A DNA stretch of 64,000 bases, taken from an uncultured Mycoplasmatota bacterium. Lineage in GTDB: Bacteria; Bacillota_I; Bacilli_A; Izemoplasmatales; Izemoplasmataceae. Shown here one piece after another: positions 21,843 to 36,831 of the stretch. The DNA lies in NCBI GenBank assembly GCA_913062645.1, contig CAJXVW010000002.1:301433-365432 (forward strand). Direction: 5' to 3'. The position numbers and the translations under genes were made by a program. Position 1 is the stretch's first letter, and each line of letters opens with the position of its first letter. Below the pieces are notes generated by a model. It made no database searches, had not been told where the DNA came from, and was given only the letters and a program-made list of their open reading frames with translations.

Positions 21843-22148
21843 GTTCCGATCCATCACGAATTGAAATGGACTTAAAAACCGGACAGATTTGCCGTATTCT
21901 CACAAAACTCAGTATGATATGACCTTATGTGAACGTAGGGGATGACCGTACTACCGCCATCGCATGGCGGGGCAACGTGGTTGCCAGCGGATTCATGCGA
22001 AGGGGAAAACAGTTCGTCCAACACGAACTGTTTTTTCATTCCCCAGACACGACAAGACAAGCGATAGAACATGTCTCCCTCTTGATTGATTTTTGCCTTC
22101 GCTTGTCTTGTTGCATTTGAATGCTCGGCCCAACTACCACACAAAAGG

Positions 22149-22409
22149 ATGATGAACATGACGAAAACATCCCATGCATTGATATTGATCATCGTCACGG
22201 TTTACGTACTTTGCACTATGGTTCTATGGCTGTCGCCGATCGCAGTAAGGATCGATCCCATGGCCCGGATCATGACCATCGGTTTCTTCGGCGTGTGCGT
22301 GTTAGTTGTAACTTTGAGTTTCTATTTACTCAAAGGCCCGGAACACCCTTTCAGTTTCTCCGATCTATATGATTCGAATATATCAAAACGAAAGAGGAGG
22401 GGATCCTGA
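22149..22409 (+). CDS. Small two-TM membrane protein
   Basis: Two hydrophobic helices (ALILIIVTVYVLCTMVLWL and IMTIGFFGVCVLVVTLSFYLL). The start is uncertain. Confidence 0.35.
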   Translation: MMNMTKTSHALILIIVTVYVLCTMVLWLSPIAVRIDPMARIMTIGFFGVCVLVVTLSFYLLKGPEHPFSFSDLYDSNISKRKRRGS

Positions 22410-28236: not shown

Positions 28237-31200
28237 ATGAATAAAAATGATCTAAATGCGGCTGTTGAGTCATGGAAAGCGCTTAATGAGAACTCAATTA
28301 TTAAATTAGATGAAATGGTCTCCAAGTTGAATAAGGGCTTAATTCCATCAGAAAAGCAAATCTCCGATTTGGTTTCTGGATTATCAGAGTGGGATATAAT
28401 CAGAGTTCGAATCAAAGATTATATATCATCCATTCAAAAGGATGGAAATATAGACACAATAACTCTAGAGGAGTTCACAAAGCTTTCTGATGAGTACATC
28501 AGCTCTTTTTTTGAAGCCTCCTCTAGAATTACAGATATTCTTGAACAGTTCATCCATGTGAAATCAGACGAGCAATATTTTGATGCGGCGATTGAGGAAT
28601 CTCGTAACGACGCAAAAGCATTACTCGAGAAGGTTCCCGACGCCAAATCACCAGAAAATATCGAAACCCTAGTTAAACAGACGGAGATCTACGATTACTT
28701 CATTAAAGCAATCCGGATTGTGGCAGAAAATGTAAAAACGAAGTCTGAAGTACTAAATATGATACCGAGCCTCTTCTCTCCCGATGTAACTCGGGGAGTG
28801 TATACGAACATGTACTACATTGATCAAGACAACACCGCAACTAGATTGGATAAGACATCCGAAACCAATGACTCATCTGACGCCAGTGAACCATCCGCGG
28901 ATACCAATGAAAATAAGGTTGACCTAGTCAAAATCGTCAAAGGTAAGAGAAAAAAAATCAAGGTCTCATCCTTTAAAGGTGATATGGAAAGCCATATTCA
29001 CTATAAGATTTTCGTGACAATTGGAACATATAAGGTTATGAGTCTTGATCAATTGTGTTATGTGGTGAATGATGAATCCAAAAATAATTATGATGAAGAA
29101 TATATTTCTGCGATCGCAGGATCATTGATTAGTCGAGGACACCTATATGAGCTTGAAGTGGCGGGTCTCAAAGAAAATGTATATGTCGTATCCACATATT
29201 CCCGGGAAGCTTTTGACAAGGCAAGTATAAAAGATAGACTGTTCAGTTATTCCAACTTCGGATATCCCGAAGTGTTCAAGATCCCCTTATGGGAAAAAAC
29301 GGGAGCCCCCGAGGCTCGATCACATTACTACAATACAGCGGCTGTAATACAATATGGCAAGTTGATTCAACAATTGTATGATCATACACCAGAACGAAGC
29401 GAAGCAATGAAACACTTGGTGGCCTACGCAGAGAATTTCGCTCTTAAGTTCAATGATGAAGAGGGAAATAAACAAACCGCGGCAATCATTGGTTATGATA
29501 TGTTACTTGATGATCAGATTGATATGCTATCGAATGAGGAAAATCCGATTAGTGTCGCTATTTTGATTGATGAATCACAAATCGAAAACTGCAAATCCGC
29601 TCTAAAACCCCATATGAGTGACTTCATCAATAGGGCTTTCTTGATAACAACTGAGCATGGTTCTGTTTTCCAATATCGTAATGAAGCCCTTACTGAGATT
29701 GGTACCATTTTTAACATGTTCAATGATTCCGCCAAGCCAAAAAGATCCAAGAAGTCCAAAACCCAGCTTCAAGATGAGACTGGCCGTCAGAGGGAAGAGA
29801 TTACATCAGGCCACACTCAATCCACATCAAAACAAAAGGATAAAGCAACGGAAGAGAACAAGAAATCAATTGAAAAAGAATCTACTCAGAAACCAAGTGT
29901 TCCAAAAAAGAAACAAGAAAAATCCTCATCGAAGGAACAGCTTGATTTAAAAGCAATCGCAAGTCAAATAATCGAAAACAATGAGGACTTCGAGATCTGC
30001 AACGTTCAGTTGAGTGACTTGATATGGACAACCATTCAAGAAGGCCGGGTTCCCGAAGCATTGGTACTGACCAAAGCCATCATCGAATCCAACAAAACCA
30101 GCGATAAATGTGAAGAGTTCACTGCCGTCTATGATTGGTTCCGCCACTCCATCAACAATAATCTTGATGAACTCAAATATACTAGTGCTAATATTGAAGA
30201 ACTCGATTTATACGACATTTCCGATTCACTTATCCCAACCAAAATACTATCCACAATGAAGCAATTGGCATTAATTTGGGCAATGCTCCGCCCAACCAAA
30301 AAATACGACCACGGATTCAGAGATAACCATAAGGAGATTATGGACGTAAATACCGGAGTGAGCCTGAAAAGCATTCACCATTTGCTTCACAATATGCATT
30401 TAAACAACGAGATGATGTCCGGATTCTCAAAATCTATCGTATCACTCTTGGAATCGAATCGAGACAGAAACATTGTTCAATCAGATTTTGCAAAACGGGC
30501 AAGCCATTTACAGATTGTCCCATCTCCCACCCAAAGAATCAAAAACCTTCATATCGTATACAAGAATGCTTTCGGAAAATCCTCACCATTATACGAACTG
30601 CTTTCACTCGTTAGAGACAATGCCTCAGATGGTATTGAGAAACTATCGAAATCCTCATTTTATAAAGTTGTACACCATCATGAGATGGATGACACGACCA
30701 TTGAGATTAACAATCACGAGGTTGAAGAGTTCATTTTGAACGAGTGGAACAAAGTTCGTGGTGACTTTGACTTGGAAAACTCCGCATATAAAAATATAAA
30801 GAGTCACATTGTAAGAAGACTCGAGTTGACCATCGATTGGTATGAGCATGCCAAGAACAACAATGTCCTAAATACCAAGATTCTCAACAAGTTCGATTCT
30901 GTCAGACAGCGGGTAATCGGTGCCATTCTTAACATTCACAACAAAATTGAATCAAGTTCGAGAAAACCGAATCCAGTTGTTGCCCAACTCGTCCGCTTTT
31001 CAACGAATCGTATGAAAGACTATCTCCAAGGTGTCTCAAACCAAAACGATTATTTGAACTTCTATAAAACGCCATACGTTTTGATGATTGATCAAATTCC
31101 CGACTTCAAAGCTGAGTTTATCTCAGTAACGGGTTATGAACCTTGGCGTTTGATTGTGAAACACCTAGCAACTGATTTACTTGATCTAGAAGATGCGGCT

Positions 31201-33570
31201 CATGCAATAGACAAAAGGGATAATCCTCATTGGTACTGTAATTACGGTCAGCTGGAACAGATTCATGACATATTGAACCCAGACAAAGACATAACTGACT
31301 TTGAAATGGCAAAAAAAGCTGCTGACAAGTACGCAGACCATAAGTACCAAGAATTTTGCAACGAAGTTGAAATGGCATTTGCGCTATTTCGAATCAACGA
31401 ATCACAAACGGAGTATCTAACTTCACTTGCAGACCGCAATAAAGATTATTTCGTCCAATATTCTGAAGCCGGCAAATTCGTCTTTTTCCTAGAAACGCTG
31501 GAAAAGCAAATCCAGATTGCAACACTCAAGAAACAAGAACTGTTCATGCAACGGTTTAGAAAAATCGAGCTGAATATCGACAAAACTGATAATAATATTG
31601 AAAAAGTCTTATCCATAACGAAAAACTGGATAGATAAGGGTAACTTCACAGTTGCTGAAGAATATCTCAATAGTCTCGCATCCGGTGAGGCCGAACTTAT
31701 ATTTGAAAGCATTCAGAACATCGAGTTCACGAACTATCGCAACGACTTCTTTGATAAACATCATCAACTAGCTCGTGCATGCTCTGCGAATTCAGGGAAA
31801 CGCCTCGCCAGTTTTGGTGCAGATGTCATTTCTTCATATCAGCCAAAGACATCAAAAAGTCAGTTCAATAAGACTGTTCGTAACATCACTGGCAACTGGC
31901 CGCGCATAACCAAAAACGAAGGCAGCTCAGGCTCTTATGCAAAATCAGAAAACGATATTAGAGATCTAATGAAGGTTTTAGGTTTCAGCGCAACAACTGC
32001 AACATATGACATAGCACATCGAAAAAATTACAGCAACTCATATGATGTCGATGTAGTTGCTACCAATGTCATCTTACCAAACTTCAGCCATCCGATTCCT
32101 GAGTTTGGTACCCAAATGACAGAGTTCGTAAAAGTCTTGGCGATATTTGGCGATCGAGGAAACAAAGGCATCACGACTGACATAAGCAATCTTCTTTCTT
32201 CAAGTCCGACGATAGTATTGATTGACAGGGCCCTAAAACTTAGTGACAGAAGAGAAATAGCTGAACTTGTGAAAGGGAACTCCCTCAATATTCCTCAACC
32301 TTTCATCTTAATCGACTGGGTACTGGCATTGTATCTCTGTACAGTTGTTGAGAGCGATCGGATGGCTGCTCTACTTCAATGCTCACTTCCCTTCACCAAT
32401 GTGATGCCATTTGTCAAACTTTCCGGAAAAGTAGCGGACGAAATGTTCATTGGTAGAAGCGACCAATTAAAAGACATCCTTTCCAAGAACGGTAGCAAGT
32501 TGGTCTACGGGGGAAGACAACTGGGCAAGACTGCGTTGTTAAGACGCGCTCAAAGCCTTAAAAACAATCCTGAAAACAAGGTTTACGCTTTGTATTTGGA
32601 AGCGAAGAACATGAACGAGGAAAAATTAACTCAAGAATTAAGTGAACTATTCTTGAAGAACGAGCTATACGTAACGGGTAGTTCAAAAGTCAAAACCATC
32701 GAAGAGTTCTTCAAAAAACTAGATGACATATGGGACAACCAAATCTCGGAACTTCACTTATACATAGACGAAGCAGATGCATTTCTTGATGAATGTTCAA
32801 AAGATGGCTATCAGTTGTTGAATCACTTCATAAAACTGGCTTCAAACAGAAATTTCCGTTTTGTGTTCGCTGGATTGCATGATGTTCTGCGATCACACAC
32901 TGGAACTTCACATAACTCCTCATTACCCCAACTTGGTGATCCACTCGCTATCAAACCACTATCACCATTCGAAGGGTTTAGTCTTCTCGCAAAACCATTA
33001 TCATTCATGGGCATAGATCTAGAGTATGAACAAGCAGCTTTGATACTTGCAAACTCAATGTACTATCCTGGCATCATTCATTTGCTTGGGTATTCCTTAG
33101 TAAACTCGATTTCTGAGCAATACAAATCAAAATTTTATGATGCACAAAACAATCCACCGTATTTTGTCAATGCAATCAACCTCAAGAAAATATTCCGTAA
33201 TGAAAACATAAATGACAAAATCAAGGAACGTTTGGATATGACGCTGGATCTTGAAAAACCAATTATGCCTTATCGAAAGATTGCTGCTGTTTTCTCATAC
33301 CTTTATCACACTGACAAGGACATCGTTGGTTCTGATGGAATTCCCATTGAGCGCATCATGAATTTCATCAAACAGCAAAAAGTACCTTCCATCAAAGATT
33401 TGTCAGCTCCGGGGTTAAAGAATCTATTGCTTGAAATGGTAGGCATGGGGATATTGGCAAGCAACATTAATGATACCAAGTTCATGTTGCGCAAAACTAG
33501 ATTCCGTGACCTCATAGCTCGAGATGATATGGAAGCTATGGCAATGATCGATCCGGAGTTAAGCCAGTGA
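28237..33570 (+). CDS. Giant (1777 aa) protein with a C-terminal P-loop NTPase (Arch_ATPase/AAA+-STAND-like) module
   Basis: FIGRSDQLKDIL...LVYGGRQLGKTALLRRAQ (Walker A, about nt 32500-32540) and LHLYIDEADAF (Walker B, about nt 32755-32785). A Lys-rich disordered stretch lies around nt 29730-29940. The N-terminal ~1300 aa are helical and unrecognised. Confidence 0.55.
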   Translation: MNKNDLNAAVESWKALNENSIIKLDEMVSKLNKGLIPSEKQISDLVSGLSEWDIIRVRIKDYISSIQKDGNIDTITLEEFTKLSDEYISSFFEASSRITDILEQFIHVKSDEQYFDAAIEESRNDAKALLEKVPDAKSPENIETLVKQTEIYDYFIKAIRIVAENVKTKSEVLNMIPSLFSPDVTRGVYTNMYYIDQDNTATRLDKTSETNDSSDASEPSADTNENKVDLVKIVKGKRKKIKVSSFKGDMESHIHYKIFVTIGTYKVMSLDQLCYVVNDESKNNYDEEYISAIAGSLISRGHLYELEVAGLKENVYVVSTYSREAFDKASIKDRLFSYSNFGYPEVFKIPLWEKTGAPEARSHYYNTAAVIQYGKLIQQLYDHTPERSEAMKHLVAYAENFALKFNDEEGNKQTAAIIGYDMLLDDQIDMLSNEENPISVAILIDESQIENCKSALKPHMSDFINRAFLITTEHGSVFQYRNEALTEIGTIFNMFNDSAKPKRSKKSKTQLQDETGRQREEITSGHTQSTSKQKDKATEENKKSIEKESTQKPSVPKKKQEKSSSKEQLDLKAIASQIIENNEDFEICNVQLSDLIWTTIQEGRVPEALVLTKAIIESNKTSDKCEEFTAVYDWFRHSINNNLDELKYTSANIEELDLYDISDSLIPTKILSTMKQLALIWAMLRPTKKYDHGFRDNHKEIMDVNTGVSLKSIHHLLHNMHLNNEMMSGFSKSIVSLLESNRDRNIVQSDFAKRASHLQIVPSPTQRIKNLHIVYKNAFGKSSPLYELLSLVRDNASDGIEKLSKSSFYKVVHHHEMDDTTIEINNHEVEEFILNEWNKVRGDFDLENSAYKNIKSHIVRRLELTIDWYEHAKNNNVLNTKILNKFDSVRQRVIGAILNIHNKIESSSRKPNPVVAQLVRFSTNRMKDYLQGVSNQNDYLNFYKTPYVLMIDQIPDFKAEFISVTGYEPWRLIVKHLATDLLDLEDAAHAIDKRDNPHWYCNYGQLEQIHDILNPDKDITDFEMAKKAADKYADHKYQEFCNEVEMAFALFRINESQTEYLTSLADRNKDYFVQYSEAGKFVFFLETLEKQIQIATLKKQELFMQRFRKIELNIDKTDNNIEKVLSITKNWIDKGNFTVAEEYLNSLASGEAELIFESIQNIEFTNYRNDFFDKHHQLARACSANSGKRLASFGADVISSYQPKTSKSQFNKTVRNITGNWPRITKNEGSSGSYAKSENDIRDLMKVLGFSATTATYDIAHRKNYSNSYDVDVVATNVILPNFSHPIPEFGTQMTEFVKVLAIFGDRGNKGITTDISNLLSSSPTIVLIDRALKLSDRREIAELVKGNSLNIPQPFILIDWVLALYLCTVVESDRMAALLQCSLPFTNVMPFVKLSGKVADEMFIGRSDQLKDILSKNGSKLVYGGRQLGKTALLRRAQSLKNNPENKVYALYLEAKNMNEEKLTQELSELFLKNELYVTGSSKVKTIEEFFKKLDDIWDNQISELHLYIDEADAFLDECSKDGYQLLNHFIKLASNRNFRFVFAGLHDVLRSHTGTSHNSSLPQLGDPLAIKPLSPFEGFSLLAKPLSFMGIDLEYEQAALILANSMYYPGIIHLLGYSLVNSISEQYKSKFYDAQNNPPYFVNAINLKKIFRNENINDKIKERLDMTLDLEKPIMPYRKIAAVFSYLYHTDKDIVGSDGIPIERIMNFIKQQKVPSIKDLSAPGLKNLLLEMVGMGILASNINDTKFMLRKTRFRDLIARDDMEAMAMIDPELSQ

Positions 33571-34700
33571 TTTTTGGTGCCTCGATTTGGTGGGATTTGA
33601 TAACCGGTCCGCGAAGATTCATTCAAGAAGCTTCCAGACTAATCCGTGAAGGCCATTCTATAATGCTTCAAATTAGTCAGGACACCCCTTGGCGAAGTGA
33701 ACTTCGTCTTCAGATTGAACCCCAGTCTAAAACAAGCAAATCTATAATGGTGCTAGATTTTGAAGATACTTATGACGGAACTGATTTTGACAATTACATT
33801 CTAAATCAAATTGCTCCCCAAAAAGCCAATGATTACCGCGCACATGTGCATGGTAATATACAGAATTTCATCACAATGGAAAATTTACTGTCCGACAGAA
33901 TACTTTGGATCAAAGGCATTACACAACAACACAATTCTCGGTGGCAGGAGTTGTTTTCGCAGTGGAAAAGTTCCATTGGACAGTTGGTCCTAGAGTTGAC
34001 TCATAATCAAGAACGAAACCTAGTTAAGCTGGGAAAAAATAAATCCCATTTGTATGATCTAGATTTCATAACGAGCGAAGACAATCGCGTGTTCGTATCC
34101 ATGTTGTGTCGTGAGATGTCGGAAAACGCAACTCACCAGCGCTACCTTACATCATTGTTGGTACACATGTGTGGTATGGATGCGGAAGTTAGCTCAGCAT
34201 GTTTGGAAGAATCTGATTTTCTAAAAGAAGATCCGCTGGAGATAATTACCAAAGTCTACAACAAGCATTTTTTTGGGGGATTCAGAGGATCGTCATCAAA
34301 CAAAATGATTGAGCATCCCTTTTATCACATCAAAAACGATAATCGATCAGCCTTGGAAAAACGAGTCCGTAAAGCACAAGTGGAAGTCTTCTTCCCCATA
34401 ATCGAGGACATAAGAATGGATTTCATAAATCTACACACTGACACACTAAGAAGAATCATGCCAAGTAGTGATCGTTTTGGCAAAGCTGTTCATTCCGTAT
34501 ACGACATGGATATCAACATGGTCGTTTCATGCATTGAGACCAACCGGAATCGGGACAAAGATGCCAAAATCATTTACTACAGTGAAGAGTTTAAATCAAT
34601 CCGTAAATTTCGTGACATTCGGAACAGGTTGGCTCATGCTGAAGTGTTGAACTTGAGTGAAGTTCAGATAATGATTCAATGGAATAGAAAGATATCTTGA
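33567..34700 (+). CDS. Protein with a C-terminal HEPN-like Rx4H motif
   Basis: The GTG start overlaps the giant gene's TGA (GTGA). KFRDIRNRLAHAEVL near the C-terminus resembles the HepT/DUF86-type RNxxxH motif. Confidence 0.5.
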   Translation: MIFGASIWWDLITGPRRFIQEASRLIREGHSIMLQISQDTPWRSELRLQIEPQSKTSKSIMVLDFEDTYDGTDFDNYILNQIAPQKANDYRAHVHGNIQNFITMENLLSDRILWIKGITQQHNSRWQELFSQWKSSIGQLVLELTHNQERNLVKLGKNKSHLYDLDFITSEDNRVFVSMLCREMSENATHQRYLTSLLVHMCGMDAEVSSACLEESDFLKEDPLEIITKVYNKHFFGGFRGSSSNKMIEHPFYHIKNDNRSALEKRVRKAQVEVFFPIIEDIRMDFINLHTDTLRRIMPSSDRFGKAVHSVYDMDINMVVSCIETNRNRDKDAKIIYYSEEFKSIRKFRDIRNRLAHAEVLNLSEVQIMIQWNRKIS

Positions 34701-34710
34701 GAGAATAATA

Positions 34711-34741
34711 TTCACAAAAACTGAATGTTCTATGATACAAT
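34711..34741 (+). promoter_or_regulatory. Promoter of the riboswitch-like leader
   Basis: TTCACA, 19-nt spacer, extended -10 TGATACAAT. The same TGATACAAT recurs at 35462-35470. Confidence 0.45.
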
Positions 34742-34745
34742 ACAA

Positions 34746-34834
34746 GTACCTATGAAGAGTACGCGAGAGACTGGCTCCGTGACCGTACAGCAACCTACCT
34801 AAAGGGCAAGGTGCTAACGCCAGAACGATGGGAC
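34746..34834 (+). promoter_or_regulatory. S-box / SAM-I-like riboswitch aptamer (P4-less variant?)
   Basis: AGAG-UACGC-GAGAGA-CUGGCUCC-GUGA-CCGUAC-AGCAACC-(hairpin ACCU..AGGU)-GCUAACGCCAG tracks the SAM-I core as I remember it (AGAG.GGC.GAGGGA.UGGCCC.AUGA.GCC.GGCAACC...GGUGCUAA.UCCAG). A CUGGC/GCCAG pseudoknot is possible. P1 would be GUACCUAU with AUGGGAC. Confidence 0.5.
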
Positions 34835-34849
34835 TTTTTTTGATGCCTG

Positions 34850-34897
34850 ATCTCCTTTCGTTTGCTCTTCAGGGACCAAACGAAAGGAGATTTTTAT
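34850..34897 (+). terminator. Terminator / SD-sequestering hairpin (expression platform)
   Basis: A 14-bp perfect stem, ATCTCCTTTCGTTT (34850-63) with AAACGAAAGGAGAT (34878-91), followed by TTTT. The 3' arm contains the GGAGA SD of ATG 34902. GAACGAUGGGA (34823-33) can pair with the 5' arm instead, acting as an anti-terminator. Confidence 0.6.
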
Positions 34898-34901
34898 TAT
34901 C

Positions 34902-35444
34902 ATGATTACTAAATGTCAACGTTGTGGTAGTAGAGACATCACTTGGAAGCGTGAAGATTACTACCGCTGCAACACCTGCAAGATCTATGCGAAAGTCATC
35001 AATCAAAAACTGATCAATCGAAAGATCCCAACTCATTGTCCTATATGTGACAGTGATAATGTCGTCGGAACATCAGATTTCAATATCTGTAAAGACTGCG
35101 GAAGTGAAGTCAGGTTTAGGAAGTCGACTGTGAAACGAAGAATATTCAACAATTATGATACTTGGATGTATACCGTGCATAATACCAAGTATGGCCTCTT
35201 GAGATATTGTGGTGTTCAATATGACTGTGATGATGAGCTGGATCGATTGCATCTAATGATCCGCCTAGTAAACAATGATGTAATTGAACTTGATGAAAGC
35301 ATCAACAACTTGCATTATCGTTTCAAAGATTCATCTGTGATCAATTCTTTTAGGGAAACTTTTGCATACAAAGATCAAGACAACGCGAATCTAAACTCCA
35401 AAGCCGTGATACTAAATCTAAAAAAAGTTCGTATTATCTCTTGA
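34902..35444 (+). CDS. Double zinc-ribbon protein (180 aa), unknown function
   Basis: CQRCGS-x15-CNTCK and CPICDS-x13-CKDCG. Lies directly downstream of the riboswitch-like leader. Confidence 0.5.
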   Translation: MITKCQRCGSRDITWKREDYYRCNTCKIYAKVINQKLINRKIPTHCPICDSDNVVGTSDFNICKDCGSEVRFRKSTVKRRIFNNYDTWMYTVHNTKYGLLRYCGVQYDCDDELDRLHLMIRLVNNDVIELDESINNLHYRFKDSSVINSFRETFAYKDQDNANLNSKAVILNLKKVRIIS

Positions 35445-35514: not shown

Positions 35515-36831
35515 ATGTTCTATCCAACCAATCTATTAGCAATCATACAAAGTGACTTCAACGGCTACGAAGAACTTGCAGAAGAACTATCAGAGAAGTA
35601 TGATCTCAAAATGACGGGAAGCACGCTGTATCGCTATGCCTCGGGTGAGAGAACGCCCCCTTTGGAGATTTATCTCGCCGTAGCGGATCATTACAACGTA
35701 TCGCCTGATCAAGTCGCTGGTTGTTACTGCCCTATGTGCATGAATCTACTTCCATCAAACTCGTTTCAAATTGATCGTTTTGGAACAAAAACCAGTTCGA
35801 GATCCGATAAACATGTGGTGATCGACTGTTTGAACTGCGGGTACCTTGCAATGGACAAACACAATCAATACTTCGATGATGAACTTGAGATTAGTTACTT
35901 CGAAAATGAGAGTACCATTGTAACAGATTACATTACAGCCTTTCGCAGAGAAAACAACCTTGAATGGCACGACGTAATCGAGGTCGAAGTAGAATGCATA
36001 ATCGACCAAGTAATCAACAGATTGACTTTGTGTCACGATACAAATACCAAAACCTACATGTTACATCCAATCAATTTTGGTTTCGTGGGCGGGTTAAGCA
36101 CAAATGCCAATGTTTCAGCTCCAAGTTTTGATGATTCTGACATCATTTTGGAGGGAACAAATGCAAATGGCTATTGGCGATTGGTCAGCCAAGAAGATGA
36201 GCCCTACTACATTTTCGAGCTGGAAGCGGGAACTTGCATAGCAAGAAAAACGAGTGCAACCATTCCTGAAATAAACATCATTAGAACTCAAATCTTCTCA
36301 AGCGATTATGTCATTGAGCATGAAAACTGTTATGAAATCACTCGTTCCTTCCTCGTTCGTGATACCCAACTTGCTGAAATGCTCGTCAAAGGCATCGATC
36401 ATGCTGAAGTGCTAAATAATGAATTCCTGTTTGCATTCATGGATATCGACACTCCCGAAAAAGTATCCAACTATGAAGATGTATTGAACAATGCCAAAAC
36501 ATATGCTCAACTGATTGAAGAAAAAAACCCATTCTTCTACTCGAACATGTCATCAAACAGGTATTGGTACTACTTTCCTGAAATTGACACATTCGCCGCG
36601 AACAAGTTTCTCGCCTACAAAAACAACAATTACCTGCTTTACAAGTATTTCACCAACAAAAAGCAGAATCGCGATAAGATGGATGGCGGCCACGCCAATA
36701 GAATTTTATCCAACTTCTTCGTAAAAACCAGTGATCCAACCATCTTGAAGAAGTTTGATAAGTATAAATTAGAACATAATATCAAAGAAACAAAAAGAAT
36801 CCGAAACGCCGAAATCAGAGTCAAGAAGTAA
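35515..36831 (+). CDS. HTH (XRE-like) + zinc-ribbon protein, 438 aa
   Basis: N-terminal TGSTLYRYASGERTPPLEIYLAVADHYNVSPDQV, then CYCPMC ... DCLNCG. The rest is unrecognised. Confidence 0.45.
   Translation: MFYPTNLLAIIQSDFNGYEELAEELSEKYDLKMTGSTLYRYASGERTPPLEIYLAVADHYNVSPDQVAGCYCPMCMNLLPSNSFQIDRFGTKTSSRSDKHVVIDCLNCGYLAMDKHNQYFDDELEISYFENESTIVTDYITAFRRENNLEWHDVIEVEVECIIDQVINRLTLCHDTNTKTYMLHPINFGFVGGLSTNANVSAPSFDDSDIILEGTNANGYWRLVSQEDEPYYIFELEAGTCIARKTSATIPEINIIRTQIFSSDYVIEHENCYEITRSFLVRDTQLAEMLVKGIDHAEVLNNEFLFAFMDIDTPEKVSNYEDVLNNAKTYAQLIEEKNPFFYSNMSSNRYWYYFPEIDTFAANKFLAYKNNNYLLYKYFTNKKQNRDKMDGGHANRILSNFFVKTSDPTILKKFDKYKLEHNIKETKRIRNAEIRVKK

Follow-up and report, generated by a model that had tools for sequence, protein, structure and literature searches.

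The regulation of sulfur and methionine metabolism is the textbook role of SAM riboswitches. Within the SAM clan, SAM-IV has no internal P4, a loss for which P5 and a second pseudoknot compensate, and has a 4-nt turn in place of the k-turn; in SAM-I/IV, P2 is undivided and PK-1 is missing (PMC6890682). The example of SAM-IV shows that the core common to the clan can work without P4. Rare SAM-I variants that sense spermidine keep all four stems and are altered in J1/2 and in the P3 internal loop (Salvail et al. 2023, PMC10853860), and in prophages of C. difficile c-di-GMP-I riboswitches control type I antitoxin RNAs (PMC11477304). Here we describe a 201-nt intergenic region that, from comparative sequence evidence, is quite probably a functional SAM riboswitch, namely a P4-less SAM-I with a three-way junction that would act as an OFF switch on the gene of a zinc-ribbon protein. 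The locus presents a known riboswitch class in a variant form, with a target that is unusual, conserved and non-metabolic.

Among the Rfam covariance models, SAM-I (RF00162) gives the only match within the window (the whole 64-kb stretch of DNA that was analysed), scoring 55.8 bits (gathering score 44.4; E 3.5e-10) and ranking above SAM-IV (RF00634) and SAM-I/IV (RF01725). The gathering score is exceeded here and in every homologous leader. The alignment covers model positions 1-108, from which nothing but the 17-position P4 hairpin is deleted, and with a covariance model built in this analysis the aptamer scores 91.6 bits. The original prediction had listed the SAM-I core elements, had regarded a P1 helix as possible and had seen no P4; all of this was borne out, as every core element is present with covarying helices, P1 is found as a 5-bp helix belonging to the P1-P3 set kept across 22 aptamers, and it is precisely P4 that the alignment omits.

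Besides the helices collected in Table 1, the aptamer has J1/2 AAGAG, GCAACC and GGUGCUAA, and it also follows the SAM-I consensus at J1/2 AGAG, at GCAACC/GGUGC and at the AU/UA pairs of P1. The nucleotides that contact the ligand (the J1/2 G, A.U/G-C of P3 and the tandem A-U/U-A of P1) are those of the SAM-I consensus and are invariant in the homologue alignments. The P2 internal loop is an asymmetric GA...GA of 3 nt/6 nt, with AG invariant in its 5' strand and GA invariant in its 3' strand, and is k-turn-like as read from its sequence. J3/4 CCAG passes directly into AACGAUGGG, P4 being missing here and in every other member of the clade, so that the junction is three-way instead of four-way.

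Table 1. Elements of the leader and the gene downstream, in window coordinates
Feature	Position	Strand	Details	Basis
Promoter	34711-16 (-35); 34733-34 (TG); 34736-41 (-10)	+	-35 TTCACA; extended -10 TG; TACAAT	Read from sequence
SAM-I-type aptamer without P4	34747-34834	+		RF00162, own covariance model, covariation in 22 sequences
P1	34749-53 / 34828-32	+	CCUAU / AUGGG, 5 bp	Aptamer fold
P2a	34759-63 / 34784-88	+	GUACG/CGUAC	Aptamer fold
P2b	34767-69 / 34775-77	+		Aptamer fold
Pseudoknot	34771-74 with 34820-23	+	CUGG/CCAG	Complementarity
P3	34789-34815	+	Short hairpin	Aptamer fold
U7 run	34835-34841	+	Immediately 3' of P1	U-rich run there in 9/10 homologous leaders
Intrinsic terminator / SD sequestrator	34850-34899; arms 34850-34864 / 34877-34891	+	15-16 bp, then UUUUUAUU	MFE and centroid of leader fold
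Anti-P1 / antiterminator segment	34855-34874; core box 34865-74	+	Core box CUCUUCAGGG	MFE and covariation in 7 leaders
SD	34886-89	+	GGAG, inside terminator 3' arm; ATG 34902	Sequence
Regulated gene	34902-35444	+	180-aa protein	ORF list

The helices are well supported by comparison. In P1, P2a/P2b and P3, 93% of cells are paired over the 22 homologous aptamers, as against 30-40% in slid controls, and covariation far exceeds that in slid and in shuffled controls. Changes on both sides occur at 10 pairs, with double changes in four of the five P2a pairs and in four P3 pairs. The two strands of the CUGG/CCAG pseudoknot can pair in all 22 aptamers and are almost invariant, so that they display complementarity and no covariation. 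For three homologues (L028, L029 and L032) cmscan favours a longer alignment, in which the anti-P1 box is taken as the P1 3' strand, and this leaves the boundary between aptamer and platform open to dispute. A P4 hidden in these longer alignments was ruled out, the short P1 3' strand being the conserved one and a longer helix being one that would pair J1/2. A search of the window for a second aptamer, near the segment that it has in common with L001 (21876-22318), found none. At the level of comparative analysis, these data establish the identity of the RNA and its conserved structure and confirm the leader as a real SAM-I-type riboswitch, in a natural form without P4.

The aptamer is set between a promoter and an expression platform. 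The extended -10 promoter that had been proposed is present, and its layout (a TTTACA -35 and TGnTAnAAT) is kept at equal distance in the alignment of homologous leaders; a consensus scan missed it because the spacer measures 19 nt. The terminator escaped a simple scan because the loop limit of that scan was 8 nt. It has the long stem that had been predicted, with the SD buried in its 3' arm, nine other leaders have the same design of terminator and sequestered SD, and the fold of the leader has z = -3.6 relative to shuffles. The U-run that follows P1 may cause pausing; alternatively, P1 may itself act as a terminator stem. A real terminator formed by P1 and this run was considered; L001 has no U-run at this place.

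The 5' arm and loop of the terminator have an alternative partner in the 5' half of the aptamer (34749-34769), which comprises J1/2 and the 5' strands of P1 and P2a. The core box of the anti-P1 segment can pair with J1/2 and the 5' strand of P1, and the remainder of the segment pairs with the P2a 5' strand. In seven leaders this anti-P1 helix is 91.8% paired, versus 35-49% in slid controls, with compensatory changes at two pairs; comparison and folding together show the alternative pairings. In the original prediction the switch consisted of GAACGAUGGGA, pairing either in P1 or with the terminator 5' arm. The latter pairing does exist, at 9 of 10 positions, but the stronger and conserved alternative is the one that uses the aptamer 5' half. 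The OFF-switch logic itself was upheld, through the terminator/SD platform and the conserved anti-P1 box within the terminator 5' arm and loop. For a transcript ending at 34876 the MFE structure is the antiterminator (-40.5 versus -26.0 kcal/mol for the aptamer fold), and by folding energies the antiterminator is favoured by 9-14 kcal/mol before the terminator 3' arm is made. Once this arm is made, aptamer plus terminator are favoured by ~4.5 kcal/mol, the ligand not being counted. The ligand-free MFE of the full-length leader already favours the terminator, and thus the switch must work kinetically.

Members of the P4-less clade are found upstream of metK and metN-like genes, which makes SAM almost certainly the ligand, and we infer that the leader binds SAM and controls termination. 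In the mechanism that we propose, transcription would start at ~34745-34749 from the extended -10 promoter. With SAM bound, P1 and the pseudoknotted P2-P3 core would be locked, the terminator hairpin and its U-run would form, and transcription would end, while in any read-through RNA the SD would stay hidden. At low SAM, the terminator 5' arm and loop (the anti-P1 box) would be taken up by J1/2 and the 5' strands of P1 and P2a; this would block the terminator and free the SD, and the 180-aa protein would be made.

This protein has two N-terminal CxxC...CxxC zinc ribbons, followed by a C-terminal orphan domain of ~100 aa (R.YNNYD...ILNLK), and it has no metabolic annotation, in agreement with the double zinc-ribbon target without a metabolic role that had been described for the locus. 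A single close homologue, with 53% identity, was found among 5.8 billion proteins, and the family is rare and orphan: a set of 1.84 billion proteins yielded 26 representatives. The part conserved in the family is the C-terminal domain and not the zinc ribbons, which several members lack. The AF2 model reaches a pLDDT of 83 with a 23-sequence alignment (46 with two sequences); a Foldseek search of the former against PDB and BFVD gave no match with E <= 1e-3, and above this value only generic zinc-ribbon matches, such as TFS4, RPA12 and TFIIB-like proteins. A profile search against PDB sequences returned nothing meaningful, and no family in PHROGs, Pfam, NCBIfam or PADLOC is above threshold. The best match in PADLOC-DB 2.0, DrmB, is at chance level (E 0.0063, 12.9 bits). 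No toxin, nuclease or NTPase domain was detected in the protein, and the NNYD family was not found in IMG/VR, the INPHARED phages or the PLSDB plasmids. The protein is probably a small regulator that binds nucleic acid or RNA polymerase, rather than an enzyme.

Every long family member whose upstream DNA is sufficient for assessment (seven cases) is preceded by the whole cassette, from promoter and aptamer to U-run and terminator, and comparison shows the association of leader and gene in seven lineages, at 24-53% protein identity. Between the window and L001 the aptamer is 91% and the terminator 88% identical, and for the genes the identity is 57.5% at the nucleotide level and 53% at the protein level. 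The leader resembles a recombinant of two copies. On three viral contigs the same cassette drives metK, which is co-transcribed with a 105-aa protein that has no detectable relation to the zinc-ribbon family. In the Actinobacteria Nesterenkonia and Jonesia, P4-less aptamers precede MetN-like or sulfur genes, and other related aptamers precede non-metabolic operons beside R-M systems; one of these controls a MoxR-VWA operon and lies directly 3' of an R-M system of the C5-MTase/McrB-like/LlaJI kind. The regulated operons of L001, L005 and L013 have no PADLOC family. A further P4-less aptamer precedes a small ORF in INPHARED MT835503, an unverified scaffold with bacterial-looking genes, and is uninformative. 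In L003, L010, L014 and L016-L018 the junction pattern GGTGCTAANGCCAGAANGATGG falls in coding sequence and there is no aptamer (P4-less model R1 <= 15 bits).

Control of Met/Cys/SAM genes is thus found in other members of the clade and not in the window copy or in six homologous leaders, all of which precede the orphan family, contrary to the alternative that homologous leaders always precede methionine or SAM genes. In the contigs examined, members of the family never adjoin met/cys genes. Judging from this distribution, the promoter-aptamer-U-run-terminator cassette is a mobile unit that came to control a rare orphan family, and P4-less aptamers with other platforms have been recruited to further non-metabolic operons near genes of DNA-methylation-based immunity.

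In the window, the gene lies within a 40-kb, low-GC, horizontally acquired defence island that holds R-M genes, PDC-S26, Septu-like PtuA/B and a Dam MTase with PDC-M33. The methylase-based defence surroundings that had been claimed are real by PADLOC-DB 2.0, whose matches among the neighbours comprise PDC-M33A/B/C, MTases, PDC-S26 and PtuA/B. Elsewhere in the family, the L001 homologue is located among HNH nucleases and a ThiF/JAB module, L019 adjoins a C5-MTase and a Macro-domain protein, and short family members adjoin an Eco57I/MmeI-type system. Methylase or restriction neighbours occur at the window, L019, L013 and L023, three members (L029, L032 and L033) have housekeeping neighbours, and across the family there is no fixed partner R-M system.

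An OFF riboswitch implies that the zinc-ribbon gene should turn on at low SAM, and we infer that its physiological meaning is a low-SAM response of mobile immunity islands. Phage T3 reportedly uses its SAM lyase to deplete SAM against BREX and R-M. It is plausible, as a live hypothesis and not a finding, although we consider it rather unlikely, that the RNA serves as an immune guard: the P4-less riboswitch would silence the zinc-ribbon/NNYD protein (elsewhere the MoxR-VWA and GGACT operons) until a phage, by means of a SAM lyase or MetK inhibitor, turns against methylation-based immunity by destroying SAM or blocking MetK, and by reporting this collapse it would call up the protein as a back-up effector or island activator; for phages of these taxa, riboswitch-controlled metK would be the countermeasure. 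Expression at low SAM, the island rich in SAM-dependent methylases, the settings of L001, L019 and the short family members, and the aptamer that follows the LlaJI-type system all fit this account, as does the manipulation of SAM by phages that carry metK under the same switch, and the idea was not found in the searchable literature. However, that same viral metK is an ordinary target of SAM feedback, the protein has neither a PADLOC family (the DrmB match being at chance level) nor a toxin, nuclease or NTPase domain or structural match, three members live in housekeeping neighbourhoods, and during infection a response that needs transcription and translation may not be fast enough or may be blocked. 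These last neighbourhoods are compatible with a role of the orphan protein in SAM or methionine homeostasis, for instance by regulating MetK or acting together with it, with its place in the island incidental to horizontal transfer. Such a role is suggested by the usual relation of riboswitch-controlled genes to the ligand and by the identical cassette in front of metK and the 105-aa gene, but it sits badly with a family so rare and patchy, without features of an enzyme or transporter, never found beside met/cys genes and without detectable kinship to the phage 105-aa protein; we regard it as fairly improbable. The protein might instead act on the cell's own restriction, given that at low SAM its DNA would be under-methylated and resident restriction dangerous, by damping restriction or protecting the genome in the manner of restriction alleviation. 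Methylase and restriction neighbours at four loci and a weak zinc-ribbon likeness to the Lar restriction alleviation protein (PF14354, E 0.0022) point in this direction; yet the Lar match, at 18.6 bits, falls short of the 28.6 cut-off and is one among eight generic zinc-ribbon matches, conservation resides in the C-terminal domain rather than in the ribbons, and a fixed partner R-M system is missing, which leaves this role distinctly unlikely.

Two further readings concern the RNA itself. The loss of P4 together with unusual, non-metabolic gene associations could mean that the ligand is no longer SAM but SAH, a SAM derivative or an unrelated compound, and the spermidine class is a precedent among rare SAM-I variants (PMC10853860). 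That class, however, changed J1/2 and the P3 loop, while here the binding-pocket positions are unaltered and members of the same clade control metK and metN, so that no ligand change is indicated and we consider one highly unlikely. It is extremely improbable that the leader is a non-functional remnant of a met-gene leader brought into the island by chance. The horizontal acquisition of the island and the recombinant-like leader could be explained in this way, but such decay is contradicted by an RNA far better conserved than the gene, in both aptamer and terminator, by covariation that upholds the aptamer and the anti-P1 helix, and by the persistence of the leader-gene pairing through seven diverged lineages.

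In the searchable literature, subscription journals being outside its scope, there is no report of SAM riboswitches that control defence or R-M-linked genes, in keeping with the lack of an earlier description for defence systems that had been claimed, and no SAM example of a mobile-element riboswitch on a non-metabolic gene. By comparative evidence, a natural SAM-I works without P4, which bears on the design of minimal aptamers and on the diversification of the SAM clan. Promoter, aptamer and terminator travel together, as a complete cassette, between metK operons of phages and genes of islands. It appears that SAM level, and not a protein sensor, gates orphan genes within islands of DNA-methylation-based immunity. 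Should the target act in defence or restrain restriction, a cofactor riboswitch would for the first time be tied to prokaryotic immunity; at minimum, the riboswitch indicates when the protein is required, namely at low SAM, for a family to whose function there is no other clue.

To our knowledge, the guards described so far are proteins or retrons. The immune-guard reading would have in common with guard-type anti-phage sensing the concept of a host sensor that detects a counter-defence activity of the phage and not a phage molecule, and it would differ in that an RNA sensor of a cofactor would be a new kind of guard. With the riboswitches of C. difficile prophages the locus shares a metabolite or signal sensor on a phage or island that is wired to a selfish or immunity-type gene, although there the signal is a second messenger and here a central cofactor. 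The spermidine variants are, like this RNA, rare SAM-I look-alikes that were found via an unusual gene association and act as OFF switches by termination, but the window RNA has lost one stem and its pocket is unaltered. With SAM-IV and SAM-I/IV it shares the binding core of the clan. It differs from SAM-IV in a P3 loop, UAAA (3-7 nt in this RNA type), that is too short for PK-2 and in a P2 loop of the SAM-I type (3/6), and from SAM-I/IV in keeping P2a/P2b and the complementarity of PK-1. The closest relative is SAM-I, whose gathering threshold it passes and with which it shares J1/2 AGAG, the succession of P2a, an internal loop that is k-turn-like in sequence, and P2b, the loop-J3/4 pseudoknot, the GCAACC...GGUGC P3, the AU/UA of P1 and an OFF platform with an intrinsic terminator. 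In contrast to SAM-I, the RNA (87-91 nt) lacks P4 and has a three-way instead of a four-way junction; its terminator contains a segment mimicking the P1 3' strand, by which the antiterminator engages J1/2 and the 5' strand of P1 rather than the P1 3' strand itself; and its target is an orphan zinc-ribbon protein in place of a Met/Cys/SAM gene.

A search with Rfam 15 returned a single match in all 64 kb, to RF00162 (SAM-I/S-box) at 34747-34834 on the + strand, the minus strand giving no match. Its score of 55.8 bits exceeds the gathering score of 44.4 (E 3.5e-10), and the alignment covers the model in full apart from a deletion of the P4 hairpin's 17 positions. The covariance-model check proposed in the original prediction was thus significant, and both the SAM-I-like elements that it listed and its remark that no P4 is evident were borne out, as was the terminator said to bury the Shine-Dalgarno sequence (SD). 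The fold of the window leader, in the 201-nt intergenic region before ATG 34902, beats 200 of 200 shuffles (z = -3.6).

Features of the window and of contigs fetched for comparison (L handles; L036, L037 and L040 are IMG/VR viral contigs); positions without a handle are window positions
Feature	Position	Strand	Basis
Promoter upstream of aptamer, TTCACA and TGaTACAAT	34711-16; 34733-41	+	read from sequence
P1, 5 bp	34749-53 / 34828-32	+	read from sequence
J1/2 AAGAG	window aptamer	+	read from sequence
P2a GUACG/CGUAC enclosing asymmetric GA...GA loop	window aptamer	+	read from sequence
P2b, loop CUGG complementary to CCAG	34771-74; 34820-23	+	read from sequence
Short P3 flanked by GCAACC...GGUGCUAA	window aptamer	+	read from sequence
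Post-P1 U-run	34835-34841; same position in L019, L028, L029, L032, L033, L036, L037, L040		
Terminator hairpin, 15-16 bp, then UUUUUAUU	arms 34850-64 / 34877-91	+	sequence + fold
GGAG inside terminator 3' arm; ATG	34886-89; 34902	+	sequence + fold
Segments compared between leader copies	34711-34834; L001 4616-4752 and 7901-8025		
P4-less SAM riboswitches, Acholeplasmataceae MAG	L005 1634-1720 and 3349-3435, 1.7 kb apart		
P4-less SAM riboswitch	L013 4246-4332		
Type II/IIG methylases; type IV-like endonuclease	~8-48 kb		
PDC-S26; Septu-like PtuA/PtuB pair	~8-48 kb		
Dam-family methylase with PDC-M33A/B/C	~8-48 kb		
1777-aa AAA protein; HTH regulators; NUMOD4/HNH homing endonuclease	~8-48 kb		

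A junction-pattern scan for the P4-less form, with the matches then scored by RF00162, recovered further aptamers without P4, 87-93 nt long. An alignment of 22 aptamers gives 93% pairing for the proposed structure, versus 30-40% with partners slid, and a complementary pseudoknot in 22/22. Changes on both sides occur at four of the five pairs in P2a, at one in P2b and at four in P3. In Nesterenkonia and Jonesia (L004, L006-L009) control is predicted to be translational, because the start codon lies 4-13 nt past P1. The genes that follow encode a MetN-like ABC ATPase (E 4e-68 to E. coli MetN 3DHW), a second ABC ATPase (ssuB-like), a rhodanese-like protein and a luciferase-like monooxygenase. As annotated, the MetN-like and sulfur genes are the canonical regulon, which argues that aptamers with a three-way junction serve routinely in sulfur/SAM sensing. 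Some of these copies carry long P3 insertions, and in Jonesia a SAM-IV lies ~110 nt from the P4-less SAM-I, on the opposite strand. Another P4-less SAM-I aptamer (49 bits) precedes a small uncharacterised ORF at 3999-4082 of L043 (GenBank MT835503.1, "UNVERIFIED Bacteriophage sp."), a record with bacterial-looking neighbours (TrpB-like, aldo-keto reductase, HAD, glutamate dehydrogenase) that may be no phage at all.

In every leader, the terminator 5' arm/loop includes a box that can pair with the P1 5' strand and J1/2. This anti-P1 box reads CUCUUCAGGG in the window and CUUUAUGG in most other leaders, while L033, a contig with a distant family member, has CCUAUGG, its aptamer reading CCAUAG. 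Pairing in the anti-P1 helix reaches 91.8% across seven leaders, versus 35-49% in slid controls; two pairs carry compensatory changes. In the window transcript cut off at 34876, before the terminator 3' arm, the computed minimum free energy structure is an antiterminator joining 34749-34769 with 34855-34874 (-40.5 kcal/mol), against -26.0 kcal/mol for the aptamer fold. The original prediction had the switch work through a segment that pairs either in P1 or with the terminator 5' arm; pairing of the P1 3' strand with that arm is indeed possible (-35.2 kcal/mol combined with the anti-P1 box), but the favoured structure uses the pairing just described. Once the 3' arm is complete, aptamer plus terminator reaches -45.7 kcal/mol versus -41.2 for the antiterminator, a margin of 4.5 kcal/mol that excludes ligand and tertiary energy; the L001 leader shows the same computed behaviour. 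Before the terminator 3' arm exists, the aptamer 5' half would thus pair with the terminator 5' arm/loop, and once it is made aptamer and terminator would be favoured. The OFF-switch logic put forward earlier agrees with this pairing and with the balance of the energies. The predicted OFF switch would be decided by kinetics and would act on termination and, via the SD, on translation.

The ORF at 34902-35444 encodes 180 aa, with two zinc ribbons (CxxC...CxxC) and a ~100-aa domain at the C-terminus. Searches of Pfam, NCBIfam, PHROG and PADLOC found no family above threshold, in keeping with the non-metabolic double zinc-ribbon target originally proposed. Among 5.8 billion proteins there is one close relative (53% identity), and HMMER, run exhaustively over 1.84 billion representatives, gave 26 proteins at E < 1e-3, all aligning through the C-terminal domain (R.YNNYD..MY.VH.L.YG...Y....Y..D...DR..L...AIILNLK). 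The AF2 model is confident (pLDDT 83), and comparison with PDB and BFVD gave no significant match, only zinc-ribbon matches.

The L001 relative has the same leader directly upstream, and between it and the window nucleotide identity is 91% in the aptamer, 88% in the terminator and only 57.5% in the gene. Contigs of distant members (24-42% identity) were scanned with Rfam and with our own covariance model. A P4-less aptamer lies immediately upstream of every long member (150-215 aa) with sufficient upstream DNA: the window, L001, L019 and three near-identical contigs, L028, L029/L030, L032 and L033; L031, with 62 nt upstream, was left out. Neither model found an aptamer at the short stand-alone members of ~110 aa (L023-L027). 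Homology among the leaders spans the entire cassette, including the -35 TTTACA and TGnTAnAAT, the aptamer, and a terminator (hairpin and U-run) that carries the SD in its 3' arm. In 9/10 homologous leaders, the L001 leader having none, the P1 3' strand is followed at once by a U-rich run (U5-U8), which could be a programmed pause or let a ligand-locked P1 serve as terminator stem. In L028, L029 and L032, cmscan favours a 106-126-nt alignment that takes the downstream anti-P1 box as P1 3' strand and casts the true P1 3' strand and U-run as "P4"; in L029, AAUGA-UGGG-UCAUU can form a mini-hairpin. At the comparative level it is secure that the window leader is no chance match and no remnant. The same comparisons make secure its assignment to a P4-less subtype of SAM-I, as a predicted functional OFF riboswitch that responds to SAM and governs a conserved orphan gene.

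L001 carries two SAM riboswitches in series within one operon. Between the two lie, in this order, the genes of a 313-aa, a GGACT-domain and a 228-aa protein. The window matches copy 1, which heads the 313-aa operon, over its promoter and aptamer nt 1-31, and matches the promoterless copy 2 over the aptamer 3' part, platform and gene. By these matches the window leader is a putative chimera, and it looks like the product of recombination between two tandem copies that deleted the 313aa-GGACT-228aa cargo.

The same cassette occurs on three IMG/VR viral contigs. In L040 and L036 it is followed by a 105-aa uncharacterised protein and then by a full-length SAM synthetase (metK) in which Pfam recognises all three MetK domains; an HNH endonuclease comes next and, a few genes further, the large terminase. 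In L037 metK follows directly. The cassette is therefore phage-borne, where it would perform textbook SAM feedback, and this placement is the best indirect evidence pointing to SAM as ligand and to OFF logic. Close P4-less relatives of the aptamer, fitted with classical antiterminator/terminator platforms, lie before more non-metabolic operons, one being the 313aa-GGACT-228aa operon of L001. In an Acholeplasmataceae MAG and related contigs, one such operon encodes a 287-aa zinc-ribbon protein and a protein of 217 aa; another holds genes for a MoxR-type AAA_3 ATPase and a DUF2201 VWA/metallopeptidase, plus five uncharacterised genes. The L005 and L013 platforms are textbook (ACCCAUCG-UUAU-CGAUGGGU, then a U-run), and in L013 genes for a C5 methylase, a McrB-like ATPase and a LlaJI-type endonuclease immediately precede the MoxR-AAA/DUF2201-VWA operon.

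G+C in the window is ~0.52 and drops to 0.36-0.46 between ~8 kb and ~48 kb; from the gene content of this stretch, the term defence island was correct. The predicted riboswitch would certainly control the 180-aa gene and, since a scan after that gene found no terminator, may add read-through into the following genes, of which the next (HTH, 35515-36831) has its own strong promoter. Upstream, within 28237-34700, lie the 1777-aa protein, with only a weak AAA_22 match (residues ~1419-1550), and an overlapping 377-aa ORF directly before the riboswitch. Pfam, NCBIfam and PADLOC have no family for either of them, and the two may belong, together with PDC-M33A/B/C and the Dam methylase, to a single large system that is uncharacterised. 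Besides the cassette, the only DNA-level match between the window and L001 islands is a 443-nt segment, 88% identical (within 21876-22409 and L001 4095-4613), with no Rfam match even at E 1. It contains promoter-like TATGATATGA and a nearly invariant ~115-nt non-coding stretch (two hairpins and terminator-like CAGTTCG...CGAACTG, then T7; fold z = -3.9), after which comes a small hydrophobic ORF (MTKTSHALILIIV..., ~80 aa). This could be an unrecognised leader or sRNA accompanied by a membrane peptide, perhaps a type I toxin or holin.

What the protein does bears on the original proposal that phage depletion of SAM triggers the zinc-ribbon gene. Outside the window, family members do not always lie in an island of this kind: L001 has HNH nucleases and a ThiF/JAB module, and in L019 the neighbours include a C5 methylase and a Macro-domain protein. 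DNA methylases and restriction genes recur in these neighbourhoods and phages carry metK under the same switch, which fits this proposal, yet we consider it rather unlikely. The same metK genes, and the DNA methylases and restriction genes that repeatedly adjoin, would also suit a protein shielding the under-methylated genome from resident restriction enzymes; the Lar-like Pfam match that would favour this is below threshold and generic, and we hold such a role to be decidedly improbable. Riboswitch targets generally relate to the ligand, and L029, L032 and L033 have housekeeping neighbours (Bmp/PnrA lipoprotein, FAD-dependent protein, CitMHS-type transporter, GNAT, NUDIX), which would fit an unrecognised role of the orphan protein in SAM homeostasis, a doubtful reading as well. 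The protein sequence and AF2 model do not discriminate among the three.

The predicted OFF riboswitch itself points to a conserved coupling of an orphan gene family in immunity islands to SAM sensing, and to a mobile regulatory cassette in common with phage metK. A literature search, reaching few subscription journals, found no report of a SAM riboswitch controlling defence-linked genes. The RNA would represent a natural minimal SAM-I aptamer. In the alignment the SAM-contacting positions of SAM-I are unchanged in the window aptamer and its P4-less relatives, in contrast to the spermidine-sensing variant, where J1/2 and the P3 internal loop are altered (PMC10853860). SAM-IV shows that the clan core is able to function without an internal P4 (PMC6890682), but unlike SAM-IV and SAM-I/IV, the window RNA keeps the SAM-I-type P2a/P2b and PK-1.
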